Source of the DNA: a phage
Sequence record: PZ229304.1
DNA: 64,000 nucleotides
Reading direction: 5' to 3' (one strand)
Shown: positions 6,749 to 56,506 of the stretch, piece after piece
How the letters are laid out: each line of letters opens with the position of its first letter
Position numbering within the stretch: the stretch's first letter is position 1
Translations under genes and position numbers: made by a program
The notes under the pieces: model-generated
Database searches by the model: none
What the model was told of the DNA's origin: nothing
The model's input: only the letters and a program-made list of their open reading frames with translations

Positions 6749-7613
6749 CTTAACTTATGACCATCTAACCTATAAAATAATAAGTTATCTAACTAAATTA
6801 AAACTAATTATCTTACTTTTATTTATAACTTACTGTTACTATCTCATTGATAACCTTATATTAAACAACAATAACTAATATAAATCATTACTAAGCTAAA
6901 TATAATCTATCTAACCTTTAAAACTATAACTATAATCTATTGAATTATTGCACAAAGTAACTATTAAATCGTTAGTAACATTACTAAATAATTAATATCC
7001 TATCTATTTATGATCTAATCTTTACATTCCTATCTATTACCTAAATAATCATTTCATATAGTAATCATTTCATACAATAACTATAACAAGAAATATAATT
7101 CGCAAGCGTATCATTAGCAGCCTATGCCGGACACATAGGCGGCTAATAATAACGCAACTACACACCCCACATAATAACTATCACCGATAGTTATTATTTG
7201 TGCTTATGTAGCTTGCAACAACTGCAAGCGCAACAATATACATGGTATATTGTATCCCTTACATTGTTGCGGTGCGTTATTATTAGCTAATGTTTAGAAC
7301 ATTGGCTATAATATAAGCTAAATCATAAGCTATGCAATAATAAACATGGTGAATAATGACATTGATGATCATAATGCGCCACCTTCCAGGGGGCGCTATG
7401 TGAACACAAAGAAATCTTTCTTGTCAAGAAAATATTACTACTATTGCGCAAAATTATTTATATCTGAATAGATGATTTTTTATGCTATTGCCCCCTTGAT
7501 TATTACTATTTGTTGCCCTAACTATTGTCATTTGTTGAGCCTACTTTCTTAAAAGCGCAATAAATCAGAATTATCTTGATTTTTAGTCGGTTTTATAGTA
7601 CAGAAAGTATGCA

Positions 7614-19337: not shown

Positions 19338-19362
19338 AAACCCGCTTCGGCGGGTTTTCTTG
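19338..19362 (+). terminator. rho-independent terminator AAACCCGC-ttcg-GCGGGTTT plus T-run
   Basis: GC hairpin with TTCG loop and T-run. Confidence 0.6.
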
Positions 19363-19738: not shown

Positions 19739-19803
19739 TCTACATTAGGTAGGGAAACGTATTACTAAAATAAAAAGCGCGTTAGAATGCGTTACAGGAG
19801 GTT

Positions 19804-20061
19804 TTAGGAATGCATAAAATCTTCTTCAGGGCAGGTTGAGAGATAAGAGATGCATGTTGGGACAACAACAACATTGTCTTTAAGGTTTTCAACCAAGCCT
19901 TTTGTAATCCCAGCCACTGCCCCGTTAATATCTGCTTGACGGATACCAAAACCTTGTTGTGCGGATAGATAACAAAATCCTTCACCTTTCTGTTGATTGT
20001 TATTGAAGTAATAAACGTAGTGCATCATAAAATGGTCTTTAACGATTTGTTCTGTGGTCAT
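19804..20061 (-). CDS. hypothetical protein
   Basis: ORF track; RBS AGGAG seven nt upstream on the minus strand. Confidence 0.45.
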   Translation of the reverse strand: MTTEQIVKDHFMMHYVYYFNNNQQKGEGFCYLSAQQGFGIRQADINGAVAGITKGLVENLKDNVVVVPTCISYLSTCPEEDFMHS

Positions 20062-20081
20062 AATATTCTCCTATAAGAAAA

Positions 20082-20095
20082 GGGGCTTTCGCCCC
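20082..20095 (-). terminator. hairpin GGGGC-tttc-GCCCC (repeated terminator cassette, copy 1)
   Basis: Identical hairpin also at 31367-31380 and 44449-44462. Confidence 0.5.
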
Positions 20096-20104
20096 TTGGT
20101 CAAG

Positions 20105-20917
20105 TTACTTAGTCAAATGATCTTCTATCATTTTTATGAAAGCAGGATTGCTAAAAGCATCTGCTGCCTTTTCTCTATAAACAAAGACTCCTCTATCTTC
20201 GTAAAGAAGAGTTTCTTCGTAATTAATTCCTGGGTTAACAACAATCATTTTTGTACCCATAGTAAGTGCAGGGAATAATTCCCAATTAAAATTGATAACT
20301 TGGTTTGAACATCCTACTACAACAACCAAATCTTGCATGGTCAAAGTATCAAACAAGTGAGCCATATCTGCATACAAAGGTGCAGCCTCACCAAAAAATA
20401 CAACATTAGGCTTCACCCAGTTATAATCATCTATGTTTATACTATTGTAACCAATGTCTACCAGTGTTTTGTAATCTCCAGGATGCATACGGTAAACTAC
20501 TTCAGGAAGATATCCGTGCACGTGAATAACAGAATCCCTGTCTACACCTGCTCGCTCTAGTAGGTCATCAACGTTTGTTGTCAAGTTTACTACTTGGTTA
20601 GGATATTCCTTAAACCACTTTGCTATTTGAATATGTGCAGCATTAGGTTGTACATCTTTAAGCTCAACACGTCTTTTGTTATAAAATTCGTGTGTTTTGG
20701 CATACAAATCCATACCGTTTTCGTCTACACCACCAACCACTGGAAGATCTGGTGATGTTCTCACACGATAACCTGCTTGGAAAGCTCCAATATCGCAGAT
20801 CTCTTCTAAATCCCATTCTTCCCATAGGGCACGACCACTATCTGTGTCTGTTCGGAATGTTCGAATCCCACTGTCTGCACTTAAACCAGCTCCACTAACA
20901 AAAATTACTCTTCGCAT
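20105..20917 (-). CDS. Sir2-family (sirtuin-like) NAD-dependent enzyme, lacking the zinc-ribbon module
   Basis: GAGLSADSGIRTFR NAD-binding motif, TTNVDDL, catalytic HVHG, VVFFGE; no CxxC pairs. Confidence 0.7.
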   Translation of the reverse strand: MRRVIFVSGAGLSADSGIRTFRTDTDSGRALWEEWDLEEICDIGAFQAGYRVRTSPDLPVVGGVDENGMDLYAKTHEFYNKRRVELKDVQPNAAHIQIAKWFKEYPNQVVNLTTNVDDLLERAGVDRDSVIHVHGYLPEVVYRMHPGDYKTLVDIGYNSINIDDYNWVKPNVVFFGEAAPLYADMAHLFDTLTMQDLVVVVGCSNQVINFNWELFPALTMGTKMIVVNPGINYEETLLYEDRGVFVYREKAADAFSNPAFIKMIEDHLTK

Positions 20918-21459
20918 TCAATATCCTCTTCGTAATCATCATCCCAAGAAGATGCGTCGTAACGCTCTTCCTCTTCGAAATCCCAATTAATTTCTACTCC
21001 AAAATCTAAAAACAATTTAACAATGTTTTCTGTAGAGTAGTATTTATCATAAGCGTTAGCTAGTTCCCAATACTTGTCACTCAATTTTTTATATTTAGGA
21101 TCATTATAGTCATAATCTACTTTATAACCATAATCATACATCTCTTGTTCAGCTTTAAGCATAGCTTCTGGTGTAAGAAGATTAGGGAACGGACGATTTC
21201 TTTCTTTTAACTTAGAAACAATCCAGTTTGCAACATTTGCCACTTCACCATCTTGATTATCACCTAAACAACTTGCATAATCTCCATCTTCGTAAGTGCC
21301 TAAATCCCCACAGACTTCATGTACAATAGATGAATACGATCCACACGTTTCACAATCTGAAAAAGTGTCTACTGTTGTAATATCAATAGATAAAACTGGT
21401 AAAGCCATAGCTTCTTTCACACAAGCCTCCTCATATAATAACATATCATCAAAACCCAT
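20905..21459 (-). CDS. hypothetical protein with highly acidic C-terminal tail, translationally coupled to the Sir2-like gene
   Basis: ORF track, start moved to internal ATG with GGAGGA RBS; stop overlaps Sir2 start; C-terminal DDDYEEDIECEE. Confidence 0.45.
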   Translation of the reverse strand: MGFDDMLLYEEACVKEAMALPVLSIDITTVDTFSDCETCGSYSSIVHEVCGDLGTYEDGDYASCLGDNQDGEVANVANWIVSKLKERNRPFPNLLTPEAMLKAEQEMYDYGYKVDYDYNDPKYKKLSDKYWELANAYDKYYSTENIVKLFLDFGVEINWDFEEEERYDASSWDDDYEEDIECEE

Positions 21460-21477
21460 ATATCCTCCACACAAATA

Positions 21478-21505
21478 AAGCCCCTGATTGGGGCTTTGGT
21501 TAAGT
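21478..21505 (-). terminator. hairpin AAAGCCCC-tgatt-GGGGCTTT
   Basis: GC stem flanked by A/T runs. Confidence 0.5.
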
Positions 21506-21513
21506 TTTACGGA

Positions 21514-22122
21514 TTATACCAGACTTTTAAGGTACTTGTCAAGGGCTTCTTGATCACCTTGACAAACATAGCAACGGAAGTCTTGAGCAGAAGGTTCTTT
21601 GTCCTCGTCCCAATCCCAATAAACAGTACCTTTATAACGTGAGCCTGGGAACTCGAAATATGCTGTATGAGTAATATGATGTGGGCCACCCCAAAACTGT
21701 GTAAAAGTAAATTGAGGATACGCTGCTTTAACTGTATTTTCAAACCAAGTTTTACGATCTAATGCTTCGTTTATAAAATAAGCATGGCGTTCCATTTCAT
21801 CCCAGTCTTTCCAAACGCATTTTTCATCCAGAGAAAAAACAAAATCCTTGCTGTTGAATTCATCTGTATCTTCCAAAATATCATAATCATGTGCACTAGG
21901 TATCCACCATCCAGCTTCTAATAGTGCTTTCACGGGTACAAAACCTTTTTCAGCATATTGATCAAATTCTTTTACTCTACGTACAGTGCAGTATTCATCT
22001 TCACCACCAATGTCCAGTAGACAAGCACCTTTGCGTCTTGCTGCAAGACCATGTGTATCAAAAACTACAACACTACCTTCACCATCTTCACGATCTACTT
22101 GATATGCAACTTTTTGAGTCAT
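21514..22122 (-). CDS. hypothetical protein
   Basis: ORF track. Confidence 0.5.
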   Translation of the reverse strand: MTQKVAYQVDREDGEGSVVVFDTHGLAARRKGACLLDIGGEDEYCTVRRVKEFDQYAEKGFVPVKALLEAGWWIPSAHDYDILEDTDEFNSKDFVFSLDEKCVWKDWDEMERHAYFINEALDRKTWFENTVKAAYPQFTFTQFWGGPHHITHTAYFEFPGSRYKGTVYWDWDEDKEPSAQDFRCYVCQGDQEALDKYLKSLV

Positions 22123-22245
22123 ATTACCCCCAATGTATATGGGAAATTAACCAAAAGATAAATTCCCAAAAACACCAACCAAGAAAAGTTAATGGAATTA
22201 TAAAAGCTATCAGAGCAGTCTTCCAGCCTTTCCACAATGTTTCCA

Positions 22246-23648: not shown

Positions 23649-23733
23649 GCTAATCTTCTCCTCTTCTGTTTTTCTGTAGTTTATTTGAAAAAACTGGTGT
23701 TGTCAACAAAAAACCCGCCGAAGCGGGTTTATA

Positions 23734-32046: not shown

Positions 32047-32313
32047 TTACTCCGCAATCTGAGCCATGAATTCACGTAGTTCAGAAAAACCTCCTACGTG
32101 GGTTAGCTGTTCACCATCTTCCACAAAAATCTGAGGAAATGTGCGTGGTAGAACACCTGTTTTCTCTAAAACCAGATTCTGAATCTGATCTAAAGAATAG
32201 TCTTCATCTAAGGTAAGGTATTTAAAATCCTGTTCACGCTGTTCTAGTAGAATCTTAGCGTTAGTGCAGAAAGGACAATTTGGTTTACCGTAGATAATAA
32301 AATTCATTTTCAC
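32047..32313 (-). CDS. glutaredoxin/NrdH-like redoxin
   Basis: CPFC active site; about 88 aa; within nucleotide metabolism module. Confidence 0.75.
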   Translation of the reverse strand: MKMNFIIYGKPNCPFCTNAKILLEQREQDFKYLTLDEDYSLDQIQNLVLEKTGVLPRTFPQIFVEDGEQLTHVGGFSELREFMAQIAE

Positions 32314-33140
32314 TCCTTGTTTAAAAGTATAGTTAAAGTTCTTACAATACCGCTATCAACACTTCGCGGATTTAAAGTAGGATCTGTTTTTAAATAAGAT
32401 GTTGCTGGTCTGACTGCTTTGGAATTATAGGTTGAAGCAGATACAGGATTAACTGTAACAGACAAATCTATAACAAGAAATATCTTTCGTGCAAAATCAT
32501 ACCAAGAAATATAATCTGCACCTGCATAGTGTACAATTTTACTATTTACACCATCTTTTACAAGTTTAAAAATTGTTTCTGCAAGATCAGGTGCATAAGT
32601 AGGACATGATAAATGATCACATACTACATTAAATTCTTTTTGACCACCGTTGTAGCGTTCCAACATAGTTTTCAAAAAGTTATGTCCAAATTCACTATAA
32701 ACAGAAGCTGTTCTGATAATAAGTGCTGTAGGACAAACTGCTTGTACTAAAGTTTCACCTAATTGTTTACTGTAACCGTAGGTGTTCAAGGGGTTTGTTT
32801 TACTCTCTTCTGTGCCAGCAACATGTCCATCAAAAACATAGTCTGTTGAAATATGTACAAACTGTATCAGTAAATCATTACATGCTTTGGCAATGTTTGT
32901 TGCACCGTATGCATTAACATTTATACAGGTGTTAACATCTTCTTCAGCTTTATCTACTGCCGTGTAAGCCGCACAATTCACAACAACATCAGGCACGTGC
33001 TGTACAAGACTATTCATAACATCTTTAAAGTTGGTAATGTCTATATCACTTGCTTCAATCAAAATAACATCTTCGGGCGCAACTTTTGCCAAAGACTGTC
33101 CTAATTGACCTTTTGAACCAAAGACTAAAAATTTTGTCAA
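32310..33140 (-). CDS. rmlD: dTDP-4-dehydrorhamnose reductase
   Basis: N-terminal Rossmann GSKGQLG; size and position in rml operon. Confidence 0.65.
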   Translation of the reverse strand: MTKFLVFGSKGQLGQSLAKVAPEDVILIEASDIDITNFKDVMNSLVQHVPDVVVNCAAYTAVDKAEEDVNTCINVNAYGATNIAKACNDLLIQFVHISTDYVFDGHVAGTEESKTNPLNTYGYSKQLGETLVQAVCPTALIIRTASVYSEFGHNFLKTMLERYNGGQKEFNVVCDHLSCPTYAPDLAETIFKLVKDGVNSKIVHYAGADYISWYDFARKIFLVIDLSVTVNPVSASTYNSKAVRPATSYLKTDPTLNPRSVDSGIVRTLTILLNKE

Positions 33141-33691
33141 AATATGATCTCCTTTAGTGTTTTGGCTTGCTGATCTTTTTGTGACAAGATAGGTTTAAAA
33201 TTAATATCATTAAAGATTAAATCAAAACCCCAATCTATATTGATATCTGGATCATTCCACGCAAGACTACACTCTGAAGTCGGATCGTAATATTCTGTAC
33301 ATTTATATTCAAAATCAGCAATGTCGCTAATCACAACAAAACCATGAGCGAAACCAGGAGGAATCCAAAATTGTGTTTTATTCTTTTCAGATAAAAGAAC
33401 ACCTACCCATTCTCCAAATGTTGGACTACCAACCCTAATATCTACAGCAACATCATAAACTTCACCACGAACACAACGTACTAACTTCCCTTGTGGGTTT
33501 TTCTTTTGAAAATGAAGCCCACGTAGAACTCCTCGAATAGAACGTGAGTGGTTATCCTGGACAAAGTTTTGTTTACCTATGTATTGATCATATAAAGCCT
33601 GATTAAAACTTTCTAAGAAAAAGCCACGTTCATCTCCGTAAACGTCAGGTTGAATGATCAACAAATCTTCGATTTTTGTTGCTTGAATCAT
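33137..33691 (-). CDS. rmlC: dTDP-4-dehydrorhamnose 3,5-epimerase
   Basis: Cupin RmlC signatures RGLHFQ, WIPPGFAHGF. Confidence 0.8.
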   Translation of the reverse strand: MIQATKIEDLLIIQPDVYGDERGFFLESFNQALYDQYIGKQNFVQDNHSRSIRGVLRGLHFQKKNPQGKLVRCVRGEVYDVAVDIRVGSPTFGEWVGVLLSEKNKTQFWIPPGFAHGFVVISDIADFEYKCTEYYDPTSECSLAWNDPDINIDWGFDLIFNDINFKPILSQKDQQAKTLKEIIF

Positions 33692-33704
33692 TTAATTCCC
33701 CCTT

Positions 33705-34574
33705 TTATTTTAATTTAAGTAAATACTTACCGTAGTCTGTTTTACTTAAAACCTCTCCAGAACTTTTTACAGAGTCTAAAGTAATCCATTCATTTTTAAA
33801 AGCAATCTCTTCCAGGCATGCAACCTTCATACCTTGTTGCTTTTCTATTGCATGAACAAATTGAGATGCTTCCATAAGACTTTCATGTGTTCCTGTATCC
33901 AGCCAAGTGAAACCTCTTCCTAGTTTACAGACACGTAAAGTCTTTTCTTTCCAGTACATCTCATTTATATCTGTAATCTCTAACTCCCCTCTAGCAGAAG
34001 GTTTAACGCTCTTAGCTTTCTGTATAACAGAATTATCGTAAAAGTACAAGCCTGTGATTGCGTAGTTGCTTTTTGGTGCTTTTGGTTTTTCTTCAATACT
34101 CACCACTGTACCTTCAGAATCAAACTCAACAACACCAAATCTTTCAGGATCATTTACGTGATACCCAAAAATATTAGCTCCACCATTCTTTTCAATATAT
34201 TCTTTAGCAGAATCTAAAATGCTACCAAAACTCTGACCAAAGAATAAATTATCACCTAGCACAAGTGCTACAGAATCTTCACCAATAAAGTTCTCACCAA
34301 TAATAAATGCTTCTGCTAAACCTTTTGGGCTATCCTGTATTGCATACTGTAGGGAAATACCAAAAGAAGAGCCATCACCTAGAAGATTTACAAAATTAAT
34401 TTGATCTTCTGGTGTTGTAATTATTAGTATTTCCCTAATTCCAGAAAGCATTAGGACAGAGAGTGGATAATAAATCATAGGTTTATCGTAAATTGGTAAT
34501 AGTTGTTTACTAACCCCTTTAGTAACTGGGTAAAGTCTTGTTCCACTACCACCTGCTAAGATAATACCTTTCAT
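33705..34574 (-). CDS. rmlA: glucose-1-phosphate thymidylyltransferase
   Basis: [19 protein letters not shown]-terminus and 289 aa length typical of RmlA. Confidence 0.85.
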
Positions 34575-34582
34575 ACTCCTCC

Positions 34583-35572
34583 TTAAACTTTATTTTCCCA
34601 CCACTCTTTGTTATCTACATACCAATCAATGGTTGAATAAAGTTTTTCTTCAAATGTGCCTTTAGCTTTCCACCCTAATTCCTTTTCAATCTTATAAGGA
34701 TTCACTTCATATCTTAAATCATGCCCAGGCCTATCTGTAACCATCTCAATGAGGCTACAAGCATCTGTTTCAGATGGATATACCGCATCCATATAATCAC
34801 AAATCATATAGATTACATCAATATTAGTTCTAGGGTTTCTGCTCCCAATATTATATGTCTCTCCAGATTTGCCTTTAGTTACTACTAGGTGTAATGCCTC
34901 TGCGTGATCGTCAACGTATAACCAGTCTCTTACTTGAAGACCATTACCATAAACAGGGATTGGTTTATGCATTAAGATATTTGTTATCGTTTTAGGTATT
35001 AGTTTTTCTGGATGATGATATGCTCCAAAATTATTTGAACAATTTGTTATAACTGTCGGAATACCATAAGTACGATGCCACGCTCTTACCAAATGATCGC
35101 TTGCAGCTTTAGATGCAGCATATGGACTACTTGGTTTATAAGGATTCTGTTCTGTAAACGGATAATCTCCTTCTTCCAGATCACCATATACTTCATCTGT
35201 TGAAATATGATGGAACATTTTAAGATTTGATTTATCTCCCATTAAACGAACAGCTTCTAGAAGATTAAATGTCCCAACAATATTTGAATTTATAAAAACA
35301 CTCGGTGATGCTATTGAATTATCTACGTGACTCTCTGCTGCAAGATGCATTATATAATCTGGATTAACATCTGCCACAATCTTAGCAGTTAACTGCGCAT
35401 TTGTCAAGTCAACACGACAAAACTTTACATTAGGTGTTTCTGATAAATTCCTAGGGTCTGAAGCGTAACCCCATTTATCTATAACGTAAATATCATTCTT
35501 AGTATTTTTAGCTAGGAAACGAACTACCGCACTTCCAATAAAGCCTAAACCACCTGTTACTAAGTATTTCAT
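34583..35572 (-). CDS. rmlB: dTDP-glucose 4,6-dehydratase
   Basis: TGGLGFIGS Rossmann motif, SDR YxxxK (YAASK), about 330 aa. Confidence 0.8.
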
Positions 35573-35766
35573 TTAGTCTCCTTCCAATTATTCCCTTCAG
35601 TAAAAATAATACCTTCATAAAACAACCATCTGGAACCTTTTTCAACAGGAACAGGAAGCTCTTCTTCAGTAAAGTTATAAACCTCTCTAGCATCTTCTAA
35701 AAGTGATGCAAATGTTTTTGGACTTACTGTTACGCGAGGAGCATTGATCAGTTGATCTAGCATCAT
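35569..35766 (-). CDS. hypothetical protein
   Basis: Start moved to ATG with AAGGAGGA RBS; stop overlaps rmlB start. Confidence 0.4.
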   Translation of the reverse strand: MMLDQLINAPRVTVSPKTFASLLEDAREVYNFTEEELPVPVEKGSRWLFYEGIIFTEGNNWKETK

Positions 35767-48971: not shown

Positions 48972-50087
48972 TTACTCTGCTGGTTCCCAAGTACCTGGAA
49001 TCATCTTACGTACACGTACCCCAACAGGCTTGGTAGGAATACCTTCGTCTGAAAATTCTTCGTACTCTATTTCAACAAATTGACCAATAAGTGTCAAAGC
49101 ATTTTCTTCTTTACGATAGTTAATGGTTTCATCTGAATCCTTACGCATCAGGAATTCGACTACTTTACCATTTTCCATCTCACCTGTCAATACCCCGTCA
49201 CCATTTTTATCACGTTTTGCACTTACCACTTTAACTTCAAGCGTCTGCCGTGGTTTACGTTTAATAACATCATAAGAACGTTTATCAAACTCATAAACAC
49301 CTTGTGCATTACGATACACAACACCTTCCGCTTTCTCACGCAGAGCTTTTGCATAGAATTCATCAAACTGCTCTTGGTTTTCAATGTACTCTGTATGTAC
49401 TACACAAATAAGTTCATCTAAACCTTTATCTTCAACAACGTCTTTCAGAGCAGCCAAAACTTCAACCCTCTTCTCAAATGGTACAGATGGCACAGGAACA
49501 TCATATACATAGTATTTAAGAAGCGGAGTGTTAGAATTATGCTTTTTCCACGCACTATTAATTTGTTGAAGGCTAAGTACACCCAAACCAGCAAAAACTT
49601 CACCATCAAGAGGATGACCAACTACTTCTTTAATGAAGGTTGGAATTTCTTTCCAGTGAGGTGGAAGTTTATATACTTCACCAGCTTTAGATAAGCATTC
49701 ACCTTGCATGTTAATCATTGAACGTAGGCCATTCAATTTATACTGTGCATAACCTGGGAACAAAACACGATCAGCATAATCTTTATAATCCTGACATTTC
49801 ATGGGTGTGGAAGGAACATGGTTTTCAGCTTCCTCTTTTGTTTTATAATACCCATTCTTAAGTTGTTTTGTCCATTTGGCAAGAGCTTCTATTTCAGCTT
49901 GTTCTTCTGCTGTTGTTTCATTTGAGCGACCAATATTTTTAGGTTCTGCTGTATAAGATTTGCTAGTAATCTTCCCACCTAATTGACCATGAGCAACAGT
50001 TACAACACTACCTTCGGTATAGACTGACCACTGTTTAATTTTACCTGTAGAAGTTTTACCATACAATGTAGGATTAGTTTGTTTCAT
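48972..50087 (-). CDS. ATP-dependent DNA ligase
   Basis: Nucleotidyltransferase motifs KLNGLR (motif I), LDGEV, EGVVYR, KRKPRQ; C-terminal OB-like region; start moved to MKQTNP with GGAGG RBS. Confidence 0.65.
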   Translation of the reverse strand: MKQTNPTLYGKTSTGKIKQWSVYTEGSVVTVAHGQLGGKITSKSYTAEPKNIGRSNETTAEEQAEIEALAKWTKQLKNGYYKTKEEAENHVPSTPMKCQDYKDYADRVLFPGYAQYKLNGLRSMINMQGECLSKAGEVYKLPPHWKEIPTFIKEVVGHPLDGEVFAGLGVLSLQQINSAWKKHNSNTPLLKYYVYDVPVPSVPFEKRVEVLAALKDVVEDKGLDELICVVHTEYIENQEQFDEFYAKALREKAEGVVYRNAQGVYEFDKRSYDVIKRKPRQTLEVKVVSAKRDKNGDGVLTGEMENGKVVEFLMRKDSDETINYRKEENALTLIGQFVEIEYEEFSDEGIPTKPVGVRVRKMIPGTWEPAE

Positions 50088-50277
50088 CTTTAACCTCCAG
50101 TTGCGAAAGAACCCATTTAGCCATTTCAATCTCACCGTGTAGTCTGCCTAGTTCATAGGCATCATCAATATTACCACCAGTGTAATCATCCACCATAAAG
50201 TAAGGATCTTCGCTACTGTTAGGTGCGTTTGCAATTCTCGTTAGTTCTTCAATAAATGTCATAGTTACCCTTACCAA
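50074..50277 (-). CDS. hypothetical protein
   Basis: ORF track. Confidence 0.4.
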   Translation of the reverse strand: MVRVTMTFIEELTRIANAPNSSEDPYFMVDDYTGGNIDDAYELGRLHGEIEMAKWVLSQLEVKDETN

Positions 50278-50495
50278 TTATACACAAGAGTTTGAATCTC
50301 TTCCATCAAATCTTCAAGATCTGTATCAACGTATTCAGAAGATGTTGCCATAAAGTATGTAATCATTGTGAACCCTTCCGAAGAAAGAGCATCAAGGATA
50401 TCATTAAACATATCTTCCATTTCAGTATTCTCACCAAACGAGAATAACATTTGTTGATCTTCGCTTACACCTTTAACATAGATAGCTGTGCTCAT
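50271..50495 (-). CDS. hypothetical acidic protein
   Basis: ORF track. Confidence 0.4.
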   Translation of the reverse strand: MSTAIYVKGVSEDQQMLFSFGENTEMEDMFNDILDALSSEGFTMITYFMATSSEYVDTDLEDLMEEIQTLVYNW

Positions 50496-50498
50496 ATA

Positions 50499-50819
50499 TT
50501 AATCCTTAAGACGTTCATTTAAATCTGCAATAACATCATTTAAATCTTCACATTCCAGTGTTAACTCTGAAACTTGTTCATTCAAACAAGAAACTTCTTC
50601 ATTTAGATCTGAAATAATGTTTTCTAATGAATCTACTTGGTCATCATATGAACGTTTTGTTTCTTCAAGTTCTTCCGTAAGATCATTAATCAAACGGAGC
50701 AAAGATAAGATATAGCCGTCTCCTGTCTCGTTCCTCCACTCACTTCCATAGCGATAAATAATAATTTCACCATTATCGACTACTGTAAAATACTTACCTT
50801 CACCAGAATAAATTTCCAT
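50499..50819 (-). CDS. hypothetical coiled-coil protein
   Basis: Heptad-like LxxxLxE repeats. Confidence 0.45.
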   Translation of the reverse strand: MEIYSGEGKYFTVVDNGEIIIYRYGSEWRNETGDGYILSLLRLINDLTEELEETKRSYDDQVDSLENIISDLNEEVSCLNEQVSELTLECEDLNDVIADLNERLKD

Positions 50820-50828
50820 ACACTCTCC

Positions 50829-51233
50829 TTATTGTAGTTTAAGTGAACTGCGAAGACGTTTTTCTTGCTGATCACGAATATGTTGTGGAACCTCATGAAT
50901 TGAGTCGTTACCGTGCCTATTTTCAACTACTAAAGAGATAACTTGATAACCAAACTCTTCAGCAAGAGTTAAATAAGGTTTAAGTTCTTTCTCTGTGGTT
51001 GAAGTGTTAGAGACAATAATCTTTTTAATATTAGATGCCATAGCATCACGAACAATACTCTGACACCATGCGTGTGCTTTACCTACATTCTCTGGCTTCC
51101 AATCGTAAACACCACTTTCTGTGTAATGATATTGATCTGCCTCACAGATAGGCCAATAACCTTCAGAAATAATTTCTGCTACTGTAGATTTACCTGCACC
51201 TGAAACACCACGTAAGATGATAAGTTGTTTCAT
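50829..51233 (-). CDS. P-loop kinase, polynucleotide-kinase-like (resembles the kinase domain of T4 Pnk)
   Basis: Walker A GVSGAGKST; IIVSNTSTT parallels the T4 Pnk VIISDTNLN segment; coupled to RNA ligase gene. Confidence 0.55.
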   Translation of the reverse strand: MKQLIILRGVSGAGKSTVAEIISEGYWPICEADQYHYTESGVYDWKPENVGKAHAWCQSIVRDAMASNIKKIIVSNTSTTEKELKPYLTLAEEFGYQVISLVVENRHGNDSIHEVPQHIRDQQEKRLRSSLKLQ

Positions 51234-52166
51234 TTAGCCTCCAAAGAAGTTTTCTATTTCTTTACGTCGCTCTTGTGGATCTAAAGCAGCCCATTGAGTC
51301 TTAGTAAAGTTGTTTCGAAGCCATTCTAGCAAAGTATAATATTCTTCGTCAACAATTTGTTTAGCATTGTTTGGGTTGTCCCAAATCATATCCCACTTCT
51401 TATTGCCACCACGCATAAGGAATTTTTTAGCAAGATAGTATGGTGACTTAATTTTTAACAGTAAGTTAAACGGGTAGTTTGTTTCACGAACAACAAACCC
51501 TTCGTGTTTACAATGTTTAGACATTTCAACAACATCTGAAAATTTAATCATCGGATAAACTTCAGGACGTTTAAATTTTGTAATAGATGCAATCCCATCA
51601 AGAACACCTTCAGGTAACATGAAACTTGTCCCATCAAGATTTTGAATTCTTGCTCCAATTAAGTATGCGCCTGGTTCTTCTTCGACAATATGTGGATCAG
51701 AAGGATCACAGATTTCAAAAAGAAAAGTTGCTTTTGCACTTTCTGTCCACTTAATGAAATACTCTATGTCGTCACACTCGGAAACAATACGGTTCTTTGC
51801 CATAATTGCGAAATCTGATTCTAGGCTCCCTGTTGTTGATACAACAAGTTTCCCTTTGTACACACCTACAGATGCCATAAAACCGTTTACTTTACGGACA
51901 GCATCTACAATTTCGTCTGCTGGAAGATCTGTACCATTTTCAAAACGATTAAAGATTTTAGTAAAAGGCCAAATAACAACATTGTCTTCTGAGTCAACAA
52001 CCAACCCACGACAATCTAAAAGTCGTTTGTCAACGTTCCACAAGTTATCCCAGAATACATTGTTTTTGTATTTAAGTACAGCAAGACCAGCATACTCTCC
52101 AGATTTAACTTCTTTTTTATGAACTAAACCTTTTGCAATCAGGTCATCACAATTGAACTTAGCCAC
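51234..52166 (-). CDS. RNA ligase (covalent nucleotidyltransferase superfamily)
   Basis: Motif I KVNGFM, motif IV EGFVVR, motif V LLKIK. Confidence 0.65.
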   Translation of the reverse strand: MAKFNCDDLIAKGLVHKKEVKSGEYAGLAVLKYKNNVFWDNLWNVDKRLLDCRGLVVDSEDNVVIWPFTKIFNRFENGTDLPADEIVDAVRKVNGFMASVGVYKGKLVVSTTGSLESDFAIMAKNRIVSECDDIEYFIKWTESAKATFLFEICDPSDPHIVEEEPGAYLIGARIQNLDGTSFMLPEGVLDGIASITKFKRPEVYPMIKFSDVVEMSKHCKHEGFVVRETNYPFNLLLKIKSPYYLAKKFLMRGGNKKWDMIWDNPNNAKQIVDEEYYTLLEWLRNNFTKTQWAALDPQERRKEIENFFGG

Positions 52167-52167
52167 C

Positions 52168-52719
52168 TTAATCTCCTTTGATTATCTTATGATGATCTAC
52201 AACAATAATATCACGCTTATCCATAATAGAGATGATTTCGTCAAAATGCAAGATTTTCCCGTGTGCATCCCAACCAACATCCAACATTTTCCCATACAAA
52301 TGATCAGGGAATGATCCGTGAGAGTGTCCGTGTAGCATGATTGATCCATGCCCTTGTTTATTCCAGGCAGCCATAGGGTAATGACTTAAGACGAAGAACA
52401 GCTTCTGATATTTCACTTCGTCATAATACACAACTTCTCCATACTCTGCAAGCACTTTTCTGTGTTTGCTGTAATCATGGTTCCCAACACAGTAAGTAAT
52501 ATCCCCTTGGAGACGGGAAGCAATCTTACGGGTATCTTCTTCAGTCCCGAAACAGAAGTCCCCAAGATGGTACATCTTTACTCCTGGTGTTGTGGCACAT
52601 TTATTCCATGCTTCGATCAGTGCTTCTGTCATATGCTCCATATCTTCCCACGGGCGATATTCAGGAGCAAACTCTCGGATACGTTTGTGCATAAAATGCA
52701 AATCACTTGTAATAAACAT
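52168..52719 (-). CDS. calcineurin-like metallophosphoesterase (candidate RNA 2,3-cyclic / 3-phosphate end-healing phosphatase)
   Basis: SDLHF, HLGDF, GNHD, LHGHSHG metallophosphoesterase motifs; coupled to ligase and kinase. Confidence 0.7.
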   Translation of the reverse strand: MFITSDLHFMHKRIREFAPEYRPWEDMEHMTEALIEAWNKCATTPGVKMYHLGDFCFGTEEDTRKIASRLQGDITYCVGNHDYSKHRKVLAEYGEVVYYDEVKYQKLFFVLSHYPMAAWNKQGHGSIMLHGHSHGSFPDHLYGKMLDVGWDAHGKILHFDEIISIMDKRDIIVVDHHKIIKGD

Positions 52720-55612: not shown

Positions 55613-56506
55613 ATGAAAGTTAGTATTCTACATGGTGTTGACTGTTATGTTACTGATGTAGACGTTAAAGTCTTTACATTCTCTGGTGGAGAACAGCATG
55701 TTCAACTAGATACGAATCTATCAGGTTTCAATCATGCTACAGACAGAATCTTACTCACTTTAGAAGTAAGATCTGCTAAAGACTTGATGACTTTGGTTAT
55801 GACTAAGAATGCATTGGACAATATGCTATATCATAAACCATATTGTGTTGATTTGCTCATGTTGTATGTGCCGTATGCACGACAAGACAGAGTGTGTGAG
55901 CCTGGGGAAGCATTCGGAGTTAAAGCCTTTGCTTCTATAATTAATTCATTAAATTTCTCACGTGTTATCGTTGCTGATCCACATAGTGATGTTACGCCAG
56001 CAGTGTTTGACAGACTCTGTGTAATACCTCAAGAAGAGATTGCTTACGAAACTTTAAAGTGGAAGTTACGTATGGAGAATTTTGCTCTTGTTAGTCCTGA
56101 TGGTGGTGCTCTTAAGAAAATATTTAAATTATCTAAGAAAATGTCTTTAGATGTGTTCTGTGCAGAGAAGGTTAGAGATACTGCAACAGGTGCTATTGTT
56201 CGTACAGACATTTCTGTACAGGATTTCAATAAGCGTAACCTGATGATCGTAGATGATATCTGTGATGGTGGTAGAACTTTTATCGAATTGGCTAAAGTGC
56301 TACGTGCTCGTAACGCAGGTAAGATTGAGTTATATGTTACACACGGTATCTTTTCTAAAGGTCTTAAAGAGTTAAGTGAGCACTTTGACTGCATTCATTC
56401 TCTTAATGTGTGGGAAGATAACATCCAAGAAGATTCCGGTGTTCTTGTTAAGAATCAGCCAGATTTGCAACAACAAATTGTATCTCCATACGTGTGGAAT
56501 TTTTAA
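55613..56506 (+). CDS. adps: ribose-phosphate pyrophosphokinase (PRPP synthetase)-like enzyme; candidate ADP-ribose pyrophosphate synthetase (Adps) of NARP1
   Basis: Prs-family motifs PYARQDR, VSPDGGALKK, MIVDDICDGGRTF; directly upstream of Nampt-like gene. Confidence 0.7.
   Translation: MKVSILHGVDCYVTDVDVKVFTFSGGEQHVQLDTNLSGFNHATDRILLTLEVRSAKDLMTLVMTKNALDNMLYHKPYCVDLLMLYVPYARQDRVCEPGEAFGVKAFASIINSLNFSRVIVADPHSDVTPAVFDRLCVIPQEEIAYETLKWKLRMENFALVSPDGGALKKIFKLSKKMSLDVFCAEKVRDTATGAIVRTDISVQDFNKRNLMIVDDICDGGRTFIELAKVLRARNAGKIELYVTHGIFSKGLKELSEHFDCIHSLNVWEDNIQEDSGVLVKNQPDLQQQIVSPYVWNF

Follow-up and report, generated by a model that had tools for sequence, protein, structure and literature searches.

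A zinc-less CobB-like sirtuin and its acidic partner in a phi92-like coliphage

Zinc-less sirtuins of phages have been described as a clade by Iyer, Burroughs, Anantharaman and Aravind (2022; PMC9503650), who reported the missing zinc site and predicted, from neighbourhoods that hold RNA ligase, cREC, 2H, HAD, kinase and MazG genes, a KptA-like removal of 2'-phosphates from RNA. Phage Sir2/CobB had been discussed together with phage salvage of nicotinamide adenine dinucleotide (NAD+) by Skliros et al. (2016), who also examined the zinc-finger-like site (PMC5107563). Here we analyse a member of this clade encoded in record PZ229304.1, a stretch of phage DNA of 64,000 nucleotides to which we refer as the window. 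The gene (positions 20105-20917, minus strand) specifies a protein of 270 amino acids, called Sir2 in what follows, and overlaps the gene of an acidic protein of 184 amino acids (20905-21459, minus strand), called the partner; the two are homologues of Phi92_gp038, annotated as a 'putative Sir2-like transferase', and of Phi92_gp039. The phage belongs to the genus Justusliebigvirus (phi92-like coliphages, Stephanstirmvirinae), and over bases 19800-22200 it shares 99.1% identity with phage JLBYU50 and 97-99% with about 60 further records. The locus is already known and annotated, a computational hypothesis for it is in print, and the window adds nothing beyond the deposited annotation save small points: the partner appears dispensable, the losses of the zinc site and of a V-x-P motif seem to have occurred together, and the gene may have been relocated out of an RNA-repair cluster. 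The interest lies in the biochemistry of a widespread phage enzyme and not in this locus.

Sir2 belongs to the same family as the clade of Iyer et al. (PHROG 2162, with Phi92_gp038 and the 'Sir2-like' proteins of T5 and rV5), and its zinc ligands are absent as in the core of that clade. It differs in that the gene lies outside the cluster of RNA ligase, cREC, kinase and phosphoesterase genes, 30 kb away, with a promoter of its own and an acquired acidic partner. With E. coli CobB and human Sirt5 it has in common the NAD-binding motifs, the catalytic His and the FYxxR anion-binding motif, but it is only about 29-34% identical to them, lacks the Cys4 zinc site, has V-I-N in place of V-Y-P, and carries a TDTxSG insertion after FR and a 25-residue insertion at residues 48-72. 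The SIR2 NADases of bacterial defence (ThsA, DSR1/DSR2, SIR2-HerA, SIR2-APAZ) share the Sir2 superfamily fold and the NAD+ substrate, and these defence-associated enzymes are without a zinc ribbon, as is the phage protein. Theirs, however, is the SIR2_2 family, which Sir2 does not match, and Sir2 has no sensor domain or partner of their kind and is encoded alongside NARP1, a pathway that counteracts them. From the macrodomain-linked SirTM it differs in having no macrodomain protein in its operon. The likeness to the RNA 2'-phosphotransferase Tpt1/KptA is one of proposed function only (NAD+-dependent removal of 2'-phosphate, with gene neighbourhoods as the evidence; PMC9503650), since the folds are unrelated, ADP-ribosyltransferase (ART)-like in the one and a Rossmann sirtuin in the other, and there is no homology.

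Homologues of Sir2 occur in 983 of 50,697 phage records (about 2%; tblastn), with carriers among T5-like, rV5-like, phi92/phAPEC8-like, Klebsiella and Vibrio phages and among jumbo phages, so that the zinc-less sirtuin is also found in T5-, rV5- and phi92-like coliphages of therapy collections. Identity to annotated phage Sir2 proteins ranges from 47 to 99%, with 47-60% to the rV5-like, Mydo-like and T5-like members, and the gene is already labelled Sir2 in phi92 and in many of its relatives.

Fold, family and the missing zinc site

Among the canonical CobB-like (class III-derived) sirtuins, Sir2 belongs to a zinc-less branch specific to phages. SIR2 (PF02146) is the only Pfam family matched (80 bits against a cutoff of 24, E = 2.8e-22), and the match to PHROG 2162, 'Sir2 (NAD-dependent deacetylase)', is full-length (E = 5.8e-104). 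These matches, together with that of the partner to PHROG 9509 (E = 1.3e-65), indicate that both open reading frames (ORFs) are real genes. An earlier reading of the window, made from its letters alone (the sequence-only reading), had picked out sirtuin NAD-binding and catalytic motifs in the 270-residue ORF, and all of them (GAGLSADSGIRTFR, TTNVDD, HVHG and VVFFGE) are present. Across 42 homologues no variation is seen in GAGxSxxSGxxxFR, FYNxRR, PNxAH, TxNxDxLxERAG, HxHG, FxE, GxS or N228, all of which E. coli CobB has too, and the NAD-binding and catalytic residues (G9-A10-G11-S13, T113-N115-D117, H134-G135, G202-S204 and N228) are invariant or nearly so. F78-Y79-N80-K81-R82 aligns with FYNAR of CobB, and Y79 and R82, which form the class-III Y-x-x-R motif, do not vary. 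In Sirt5 and CobB this motif serves the recognition of acidic acyl groups by binding the carboxylate of succinyl-lysine.

By sequence, the solved structure nearest to Sir2 is that of E. coli CobB (E = 6e-18), followed by those of Sir2Af, Sir2Tm and Sirt5. An AlphaFold2 model of the protein has a predicted local distance difference test score (pLDDT) of 90.9 and a predicted template modelling score (pTM) of 0.87, and the best 50 matches listed by Foldseek are all ordinary sirtuins; in the PDB the best fold match is again CobB (E = 7e-17, template modelling scores 0.72/0.85), ahead of Sir2Af, Sirt5, Sirt2 and Hst2. The structure prediction and remote homology search proposed with the sequence-only reading therefore agree on a confident sirtuin fold with matches led by CobB. 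That reading had also likened the protein to the Sir2 domains of bacterial defence NADases, and here the results point elsewhere: PF02146 alone was matched, SIR2_2 gave no match at E<=1 in the Pfam search, the PADLOC search yielded nothing meaningful (its sole match, PDC-S65, reaches 13.8 bits over 37 residues), and the best matches are CobB, Sir2Af, Sirt5 and Sirt2. Sir2 is a single-domain protein, and the Pfam and PHROG annotation reveals no SLOG, HerA, pAgo/APAZ or large C-terminal sensor domain among its neighbours. It nonetheless falls far under all NCBIfam cutoffs for CobB equivalogs and subfamilies (NF001753, 104.5 against 243; NF040867, 84 against 320; NF001755, 82 against 318), and it is therefore not a CobB orthologue.

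The absence of a CxxC zinc module, also asserted by that reading, follows from the cysteine content, because C41 and C203 are the only cysteines of the protein. No cysteine lies at residues 135-177, and the Cys4 zinc-ribbon module found between HG and the FGE strand is missing, while the segment from HG to KPNVVFFGE is about as long as in CobB, with beta strands predicted at 135-143 and 151-154 of the model. After GxS the protein reads V207-I208-N209, and throughout the core phage clade this position holds VIN or VID where CobB has VYP. The deepest relatives, L069 and L070 (about 35% identity, on IMG/VR contigs 279 kb and 608 kb long), keep CxxC...CPxC, and V-x-P is kept in L068 and L069 (VVP); the core clade has an 8-residue deletion, no cysteines of this kind, and V-I-N or V-I-D in place of V-x-P. 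L069 and L070 thereby seem to bridge CobB and the zinc-less clade, and the alignment suggests that the zinc site and V-x-P were lost together in the core clade from a CobB-like ancestor, with the NAD+ chemistry probably retained. L069 and L070 also have TQN(I/C)D and GTS.

In sirtuin structures the zinc-ribbon ligands help to hold the acyl-lysine peptide. The V-x-P proline after GxS, which lines the acyl-lysine tunnel, has been reported as strictly conserved (PMC5107563). Since two elements that hold the peptide have been lost, we infer a change of substrate: losing both would be in keeping with an enzyme that has abandoned its peptide substrate.

RNA-repair neighbourhoods and the proposed reaction of the enzyme

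To place the gene among its relatives, we collected 59 Sir2 loci from IMG/VR, which with the window make 60 loci in 23 Sir2-identity groups, called and clustered their ORFs, and annotated the cluster representatives with Pfam. In the rV5-like and Mydo-like phages (5-8 groups) Sir2 adjoins a DNA ligase gene (PF01068), and within about 3 kb of it are encoded a calcineurin-like phosphoesterase (PF00149/PF12850), a T4-type Rnl1 (RNA ligase 1), an AAA_33 P-loop kinase, cREC (PF20274) and MazG, nearly all of these neighbours being on its strand. The same RNA-repair neighbourhood surrounds Sir2 in annotated genomes, and in some T5-like genomes a HAD_SAK_2 'Swiss-army-knife RNA repair' phosphatase gene overlaps the Sir2 stop. 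This survey supports the RNA-repair linkage that Iyer et al. (2022) described for rV5-like and T5-like phages. In the Stephanstirmvirinae, including the window, none of the surveyed loci has an RNA-repair gene next to Sir2.

The window does carry such a cluster, 30 kb from Sir2 and on the same strand: the block at 48972-52719 (minus) runs phosphoesterase, Rnl1, kinase and on to a DNA ligase, and contains no Sir2. Its members include a calcineurin-like phosphoesterase (52168-52719), a T4-type RNA ligase 1 (51234-52166) and a kinase-only P-loop polynucleotide kinase of 134 residues (50829-51233), all on the minus strand. The block is syntenic with the Sir2-containing cluster of rV5-like and Klebsiella phages. 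The presence in the window of the RNA-repair cluster without Sir2 is most simply explained if Sir2 left that cluster in this lineage. The 74-residue genes that flank Sir2 in a Klebsiella phage were considered as counterparts of the 74-residue gene of the window cluster, but there is no match between them. Yeast-type healing, in the Trl1/Tpt1 pathway, leaves a 2'-phosphate. The small, kinase-only polynucleotide kinase fits this type of healing rather than that of T4 Pnkp.

On this evidence we tentatively favour, at somewhat short of an even chance, the view that Sir2 is a Tpt1-like RNA-end ADP-ribosyl transferase. The motifs suggest that the enzyme would bind NAD+ in an intact Rossmann pocket and, by means of His134, pass the ADP-ribose of this NAD+ on to an acceptor, releasing nicotinamide. 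From the neighbourhoods in the sister lineages, the likeliest acceptor would be an anionic group on RNA (Iyer et al. 2022). The candidate group is the 2'-phosphate that would remain on a broken tRNA once a cyclic phosphodiesterase and a kinase-only polynucleotide kinase have healed the ends and an Rnl1-type ligase has sealed them; Sir2 would then carry out the step performed by Tpt1/KptA, with the invariant Tyr79 and Arg82 holding the phosphate. In the phage studied here the gene would act from outside the RNA-repair cluster under its own strong sigma-70 promoter, the acidic Cys-knuckle partner would be co-translated as an accessory rather than as an obligate subunit or antitoxin, and the NAD+ consumed could be rebuilt by NARP1 of the same genome.

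Several points weigh against this proposal. No RNA-repair gene lies next to Sir2 in this phage, for which the linkage argument has to draw on other lineages. Repair of the T4 type, by Pnkp and Rnl1, needs no 2'-phosphotransferase, and we know of no sirtuin that acts on RNA. An enzyme that binds RNA would not usually be as acidic as Sir2 (isoelectric point, pI, 4.8; net charge -15), a protein deacylase of the desuccinylase type would account equally well for the class-III Y..R and FGE that are retained, and we found no published experimental work in the literature on any phage Sir2 of this clade. An extended version of the proposal is unlikely to hold in full: here the phage clade would be the first RNA-acting sirtuin, removing or ADP-ribosylating a terminal or junction phosphate in the repair of tRNAs cut by host anticodon nucleases, the acidic CxxC...C partner of phi92-type phages, whose tail resembles RNA, would be translated together with the enzyme and serve as its regulator or as a subunit that targets it, and NARP1 would recycle ADP-ribose and nicotinamide into NAD+.

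It is possible, though we think it doubtful, that Sir2 is a CobB-like NAD+-dependent lysine deacylase (deacetylase or desuccinylase) that remodels host or phage acylation early, for example by activating acetyl-CoA synthetase, an idea put forward for Vibrio phages (PMC5107563). This is what the default GenBank annotation implies, CobB and Sirt5 are the nearest relatives in both sequence and structure, and the catalytic His, FGE and the succinyl-binding Y79..R82 are invariant. The wide failure of all the CobB equivalog cutoffs (84-104 bits against 243-320) tells against it, however, as does the disappearance from the core clade of the zinc-ribbon ligands and V-x-P proline that hold the acyl-lysine peptide and that deeper branches keep; E. 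coli also has a CobB of its own, and the conserved neighbours are enzymes of RNA-end processing rather than of metabolism. Less probable is a protein mono-ADP-ribosyltransferase that modifies host targets as an analogue of T4 Alt/ModA/ModB or of the macrodomain-linked SirTM. Sirtuins are capable of ADP-ribosylation (reviewed in PMC9503650), a strong sigma-70 promoter would suit host takeover, and Phi92 and several relatives bear the label 'Sir2-like transferase', but we found no assay behind that annotation, the His typical of deacylases is kept, there is no similarity to ART-fold enzymes, and no macrodomain, NADAR or ARH gene stands among the annotated neighbours of Sir2.

A bearing on the remaining alternative comes from the NAD+ pathway, whose presence the sequence-only reading had noticed correctly. 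A PRPP-synthetase-like (phosphoribosyl pyrophosphate; Adps-like) gene at 55613-56506 and a Nampt-like (Namat-like) gene for 577 residues at 56578-58311, both on the plus strand, form a NARP1-type pair that matches that of Bas63 and is likewise annotated in the close relative PaulScherrer (Justusliebigvirus). In Bas63 (BASEL) this two-gene operon is NARP1, whose enzymes Adps and Namat rebuild NAD+ from ADP-ribose and nicotinamide, and which defeats SIR2-HerA, DSR and Thoeris (10.1101/2024.02.11.579819). The further statement, that a phage with such a pathway and its own Sir2 is unusual, is contradicted by the 983 records, by the existing annotation and by the published discussion with NAD+ salvage and zinc loss (PMC5107563, PMC9503650); NARP1 and Sir2 in one genome are widespread among these phages and not an oddity. 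A plain NADase would counter NARP1, whereas NARP1 sits more easily with a substrate-directed transferase, whose by-products it can recycle. We accordingly regard as very improbable that Sir2 is a free NADase, or a toxin restrained by the acidic partner as antitoxin or inhibitor, aimed at the host or at competing phages. Its zinc loss superficially resembles that of defence SIR2 domains, and the overlapping two-gene layout is like that of toxin-antitoxin pairs, but in addition to the conflict with its own NARP1, SIR2_2 and PADLOC gave no match, the best 50 fold matches listed are canonical sirtuins throughout, about 840 genomes (T5-like, rV5-like and others) never had the partner, and locus L014 (below) keeps Sir2 with the partner deleted, which is not the antitoxin dependence of a type II system.

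If the RNA-repair prediction is true, sirtuin chemistry would extend to nucleic acids and provide a new counter-measure against tRNA-cleaving defences, whereas a deacylase or ADP-ribosyltransferase would make Sir2 an enzyme of host takeover. Either way Sir2 would be an NAD+ consumer in phages that carry NARP1, which bears on the relation between NAD+-depletion immunity and phage metabolism.

The window also holds 16 tRNA genes (59058-62200, plus strand), among them Lys-UUU, Tyr, Asn, Gln and three Met/fMet types, which are relevant to anticodon-nuclease defences. In rV5-like phages a gene annotated as 'putative Sir2-like protein' stands beside the real Sir2 (phage nomine, L009 4276-4989) and has no Pfam match of its own; the representative of its neighbour cluster weakly matches the MazG-like PRA-PH pyrophosphohydrolase family. 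This gene is not a sirtuin, and its label is therefore a propagated misannotation.

The acidic partner

The partner (pI 4.05, net charge about -32) belongs to PHROG 9509, a family of unknown function, and ends in ...DDDYEEDIECEE. The family is small, with 19 proteins in a profile search of 1.84 billion representatives and 137 phage records. C36, C39, G59 and C64 are its invariant residues, forming a CxxC...C pattern, and every member has a net charge of -16 to -35 and a C-terminus of D/E plus aromatic residues, whether or not Sir2 is adjacent. Structure prediction and remote homology, proposed by the sequence-only reading for both proteins, succeeded here in part: a model was obtained (AlphaFold2, pLDDT 84) with a beta-hairpin tipped by CxxC, a bundle of helices and, at 170-184, a disordered tail of acidic and aromatic residues, but single-sequence and profile searches of the PDB and fold searches gave no informative relatives, the fold matches being uncharacterised phage proteins only. 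No Pfam family matched above its cutoff. The L32 zinc ribbon recurred among sub-threshold matches (NCBIfam L32, 17.7 bits, under the cutoff), and we regard the PDB matches to L32 zinc ribbons or calmodulin-like proteins as weak noise. The label 'putative aminoacyl-tRNA synthetase' given to the partner in BASEL genomes rests on a PhetRS_B1 match of 15.4 bits against a cutoff of 26.8 and was rejected on that ground, and gp051, the second gene so labelled, is not a paralogue of the partner.

The partner adjoins Sir2 in the Stephanstirmvirinae only, and natural variants have lost part or all of it. In at least three Justusliebigvirus genomes (L001, phage Paula, 7130-7160; L012 and L013, about 6980-7000) codon 176 has changed from GAA to TAA, an allele that drops the last nine residues (EEDIECEE, including a conserved Cys) and leaves Sir2 intact. 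In L014 (IMGVR_UViG_3300030441_000047, 6932-7000; Sir2 73% identical) the partner is cut to a 14-codon remnant (MNFQDMINYQTQCV...) that stands in frame just ahead of an intact Sir2, with the upstream hairpin kept. Because the partner is truncated or deleted where Sir2 is intact, it is neither an obligate subunit nor an antitoxin, and we take it to be probably a lineage-specific, dispensable accessory that is co-translated with Sir2. The dedicated two-gene system envisaged by the sequence-only reading is thus not borne out, given the restriction of the pairing to the Stephanstirmvirinae, the three truncated isolates and the deletion in L014. The idea that the partner supplies in trans a zinc module required by Sir2 was likewise rejected, in view of the roughly 840 Sir2-bearing genomes without the partner and its loss from L014. 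C182, the conserved Cys of the 'EC' at the end of the protein, is explained by the overlapping Sir2 ATG (GAATGC) read in the other frame, and it is absent in the three isolates.

There is nearly an even chance that the acidic partner is independent of Sir2, for example a nucleic-acid mimic or anti-defence protein, and that their adjacency reflects tight gene packing. The extreme acidity and the D/E-aromatic tail occur in all members regardless of Sir2, the distant homologues adjoin DUF5856 genes in a T4-like contig and an Erwinia jumbo phage and in jumbo phages lie about 30 kb or more from Sir2, start-stop overlaps of 1-20 nucleotides are usual around Sir2 in all lineages, and truncation and deletion alleles exist. 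The overlap with Sir2, however, measures 13-16 nucleotides with the Sir2 Shine-Dalgarno sequence and ATG inside the partner tail in both Justusliebigvirus and Phapecoctavirus, where it is kept at 38% partner identity, and, among the phage groups examined, those with the partner family all carry a gene for a Sir2 homologue as well, at one place or another in the genome. Of the distant homologues, that of Erwinia phage pEa_SNUABM_12 (L007, 5445-5951) stands by a DUF5856 gene with a NADAR-domain gene about 1 kb away, and that of Serratia phage BF (L005, 10292-10462) stands by a DUF5856 gene in a syntenic region with an RNA ligase gene about 5 kb away.

Layout and transcription signals of the locus

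A long minus-strand run of nucleotide-metabolism genes has the two genes at its end. The overlap and the bracketing hairpins described by the sequence-only reading are both present: the TAA of the partner (20907-20905) falls 13 nucleotides inside Sir2, whose ATG is at 20917-20915, and G+C-rich hairpins with T tracts occupy 21497-21477 and 20097-20080. The Sir2 Shine-Dalgarno sequence GAGGA (20924-20928, minus strand) is encoded by codons of the acidic tail (GAA GAG GAT), and the ATG sits within the GAA-TGC of that tail. The partner frame is open over 20905-21474 (minus) from a TTG, which would give 189 residues, but its Shine-Dalgarno sequence GGAGGA (21469-21464) lies six bases ahead of the ATG at 21459, and we therefore take this ATG, with 184 residues, as the true start.

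A sigma-70 promoter with perfect TTGACA-N18-TATAAT and a TG before the -10 element (21513-21542, minus strand) overlaps the 3' end of gp041; it is the sole exact match to this pattern in the window (shuffled sequences: mean 0.07), it is conserved upstream of the pair in Paula and PaulScherrer, and phAPEC8 has a near-consensus version. Since the promoter is strong and its own, Sir2 is probably an early gene, and the overlap, the bracketing hairpins and the promoter together make the pair resemble a small operon that is probably read early by host RNA polymerase. Because the hairpin at 21477-21497 (minus strand) lies between promoter and partner start, the mRNA of partner and Sir2 would carry it in its 5' leader, where it may act as an attenuator or as a stabilising stem; alternatively it may simply terminate the upstream unit. 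In phAPEC8 and L014 a hairpin of different sequence stands at the equivalent position. The hairpin just past the Sir2 stop (20080-20097, minus strand) resembles an intrinsic terminator (-15.1 kcal/mol, z = -2.7) and is annotated as a terminator in phage Paula. The 4.9-kb region contains 8 terminator-like sites, compared with 2.2 +/- 1.8 in shuffled sequences.

Downstream of the terminator lies a small gene of the gp037 family (PHROG 15991; 19804-20061, minus strand). Upstream of Sir2, no gene persists as widely in this lineage as the gp041-family gene (PHROG 8514; 21514-22122, minus strand), which accompanies Sir2 in 6 identity groups against 3 for the partner. Its acidic product has the conserved motif ITHTA.F.FPG, with no Pfam match above the cutoff and no PDB relative in a profile search. 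The same palindromic hairpin, AAACCCGC-TTCG-GCGGGTTT, occurs at 19338-19357 and, in inverted orientation, at 23711-23730, and both copies look like bidirectional terminators. Elsewhere in the window, at about 32300-35600 (minus strand), a complete rmlABCD-like set for dTDP-rhamnose stands by glutaredoxin and ribonucleotide reductase genes (annotated in PaulScherrer, L002 32512-35773).

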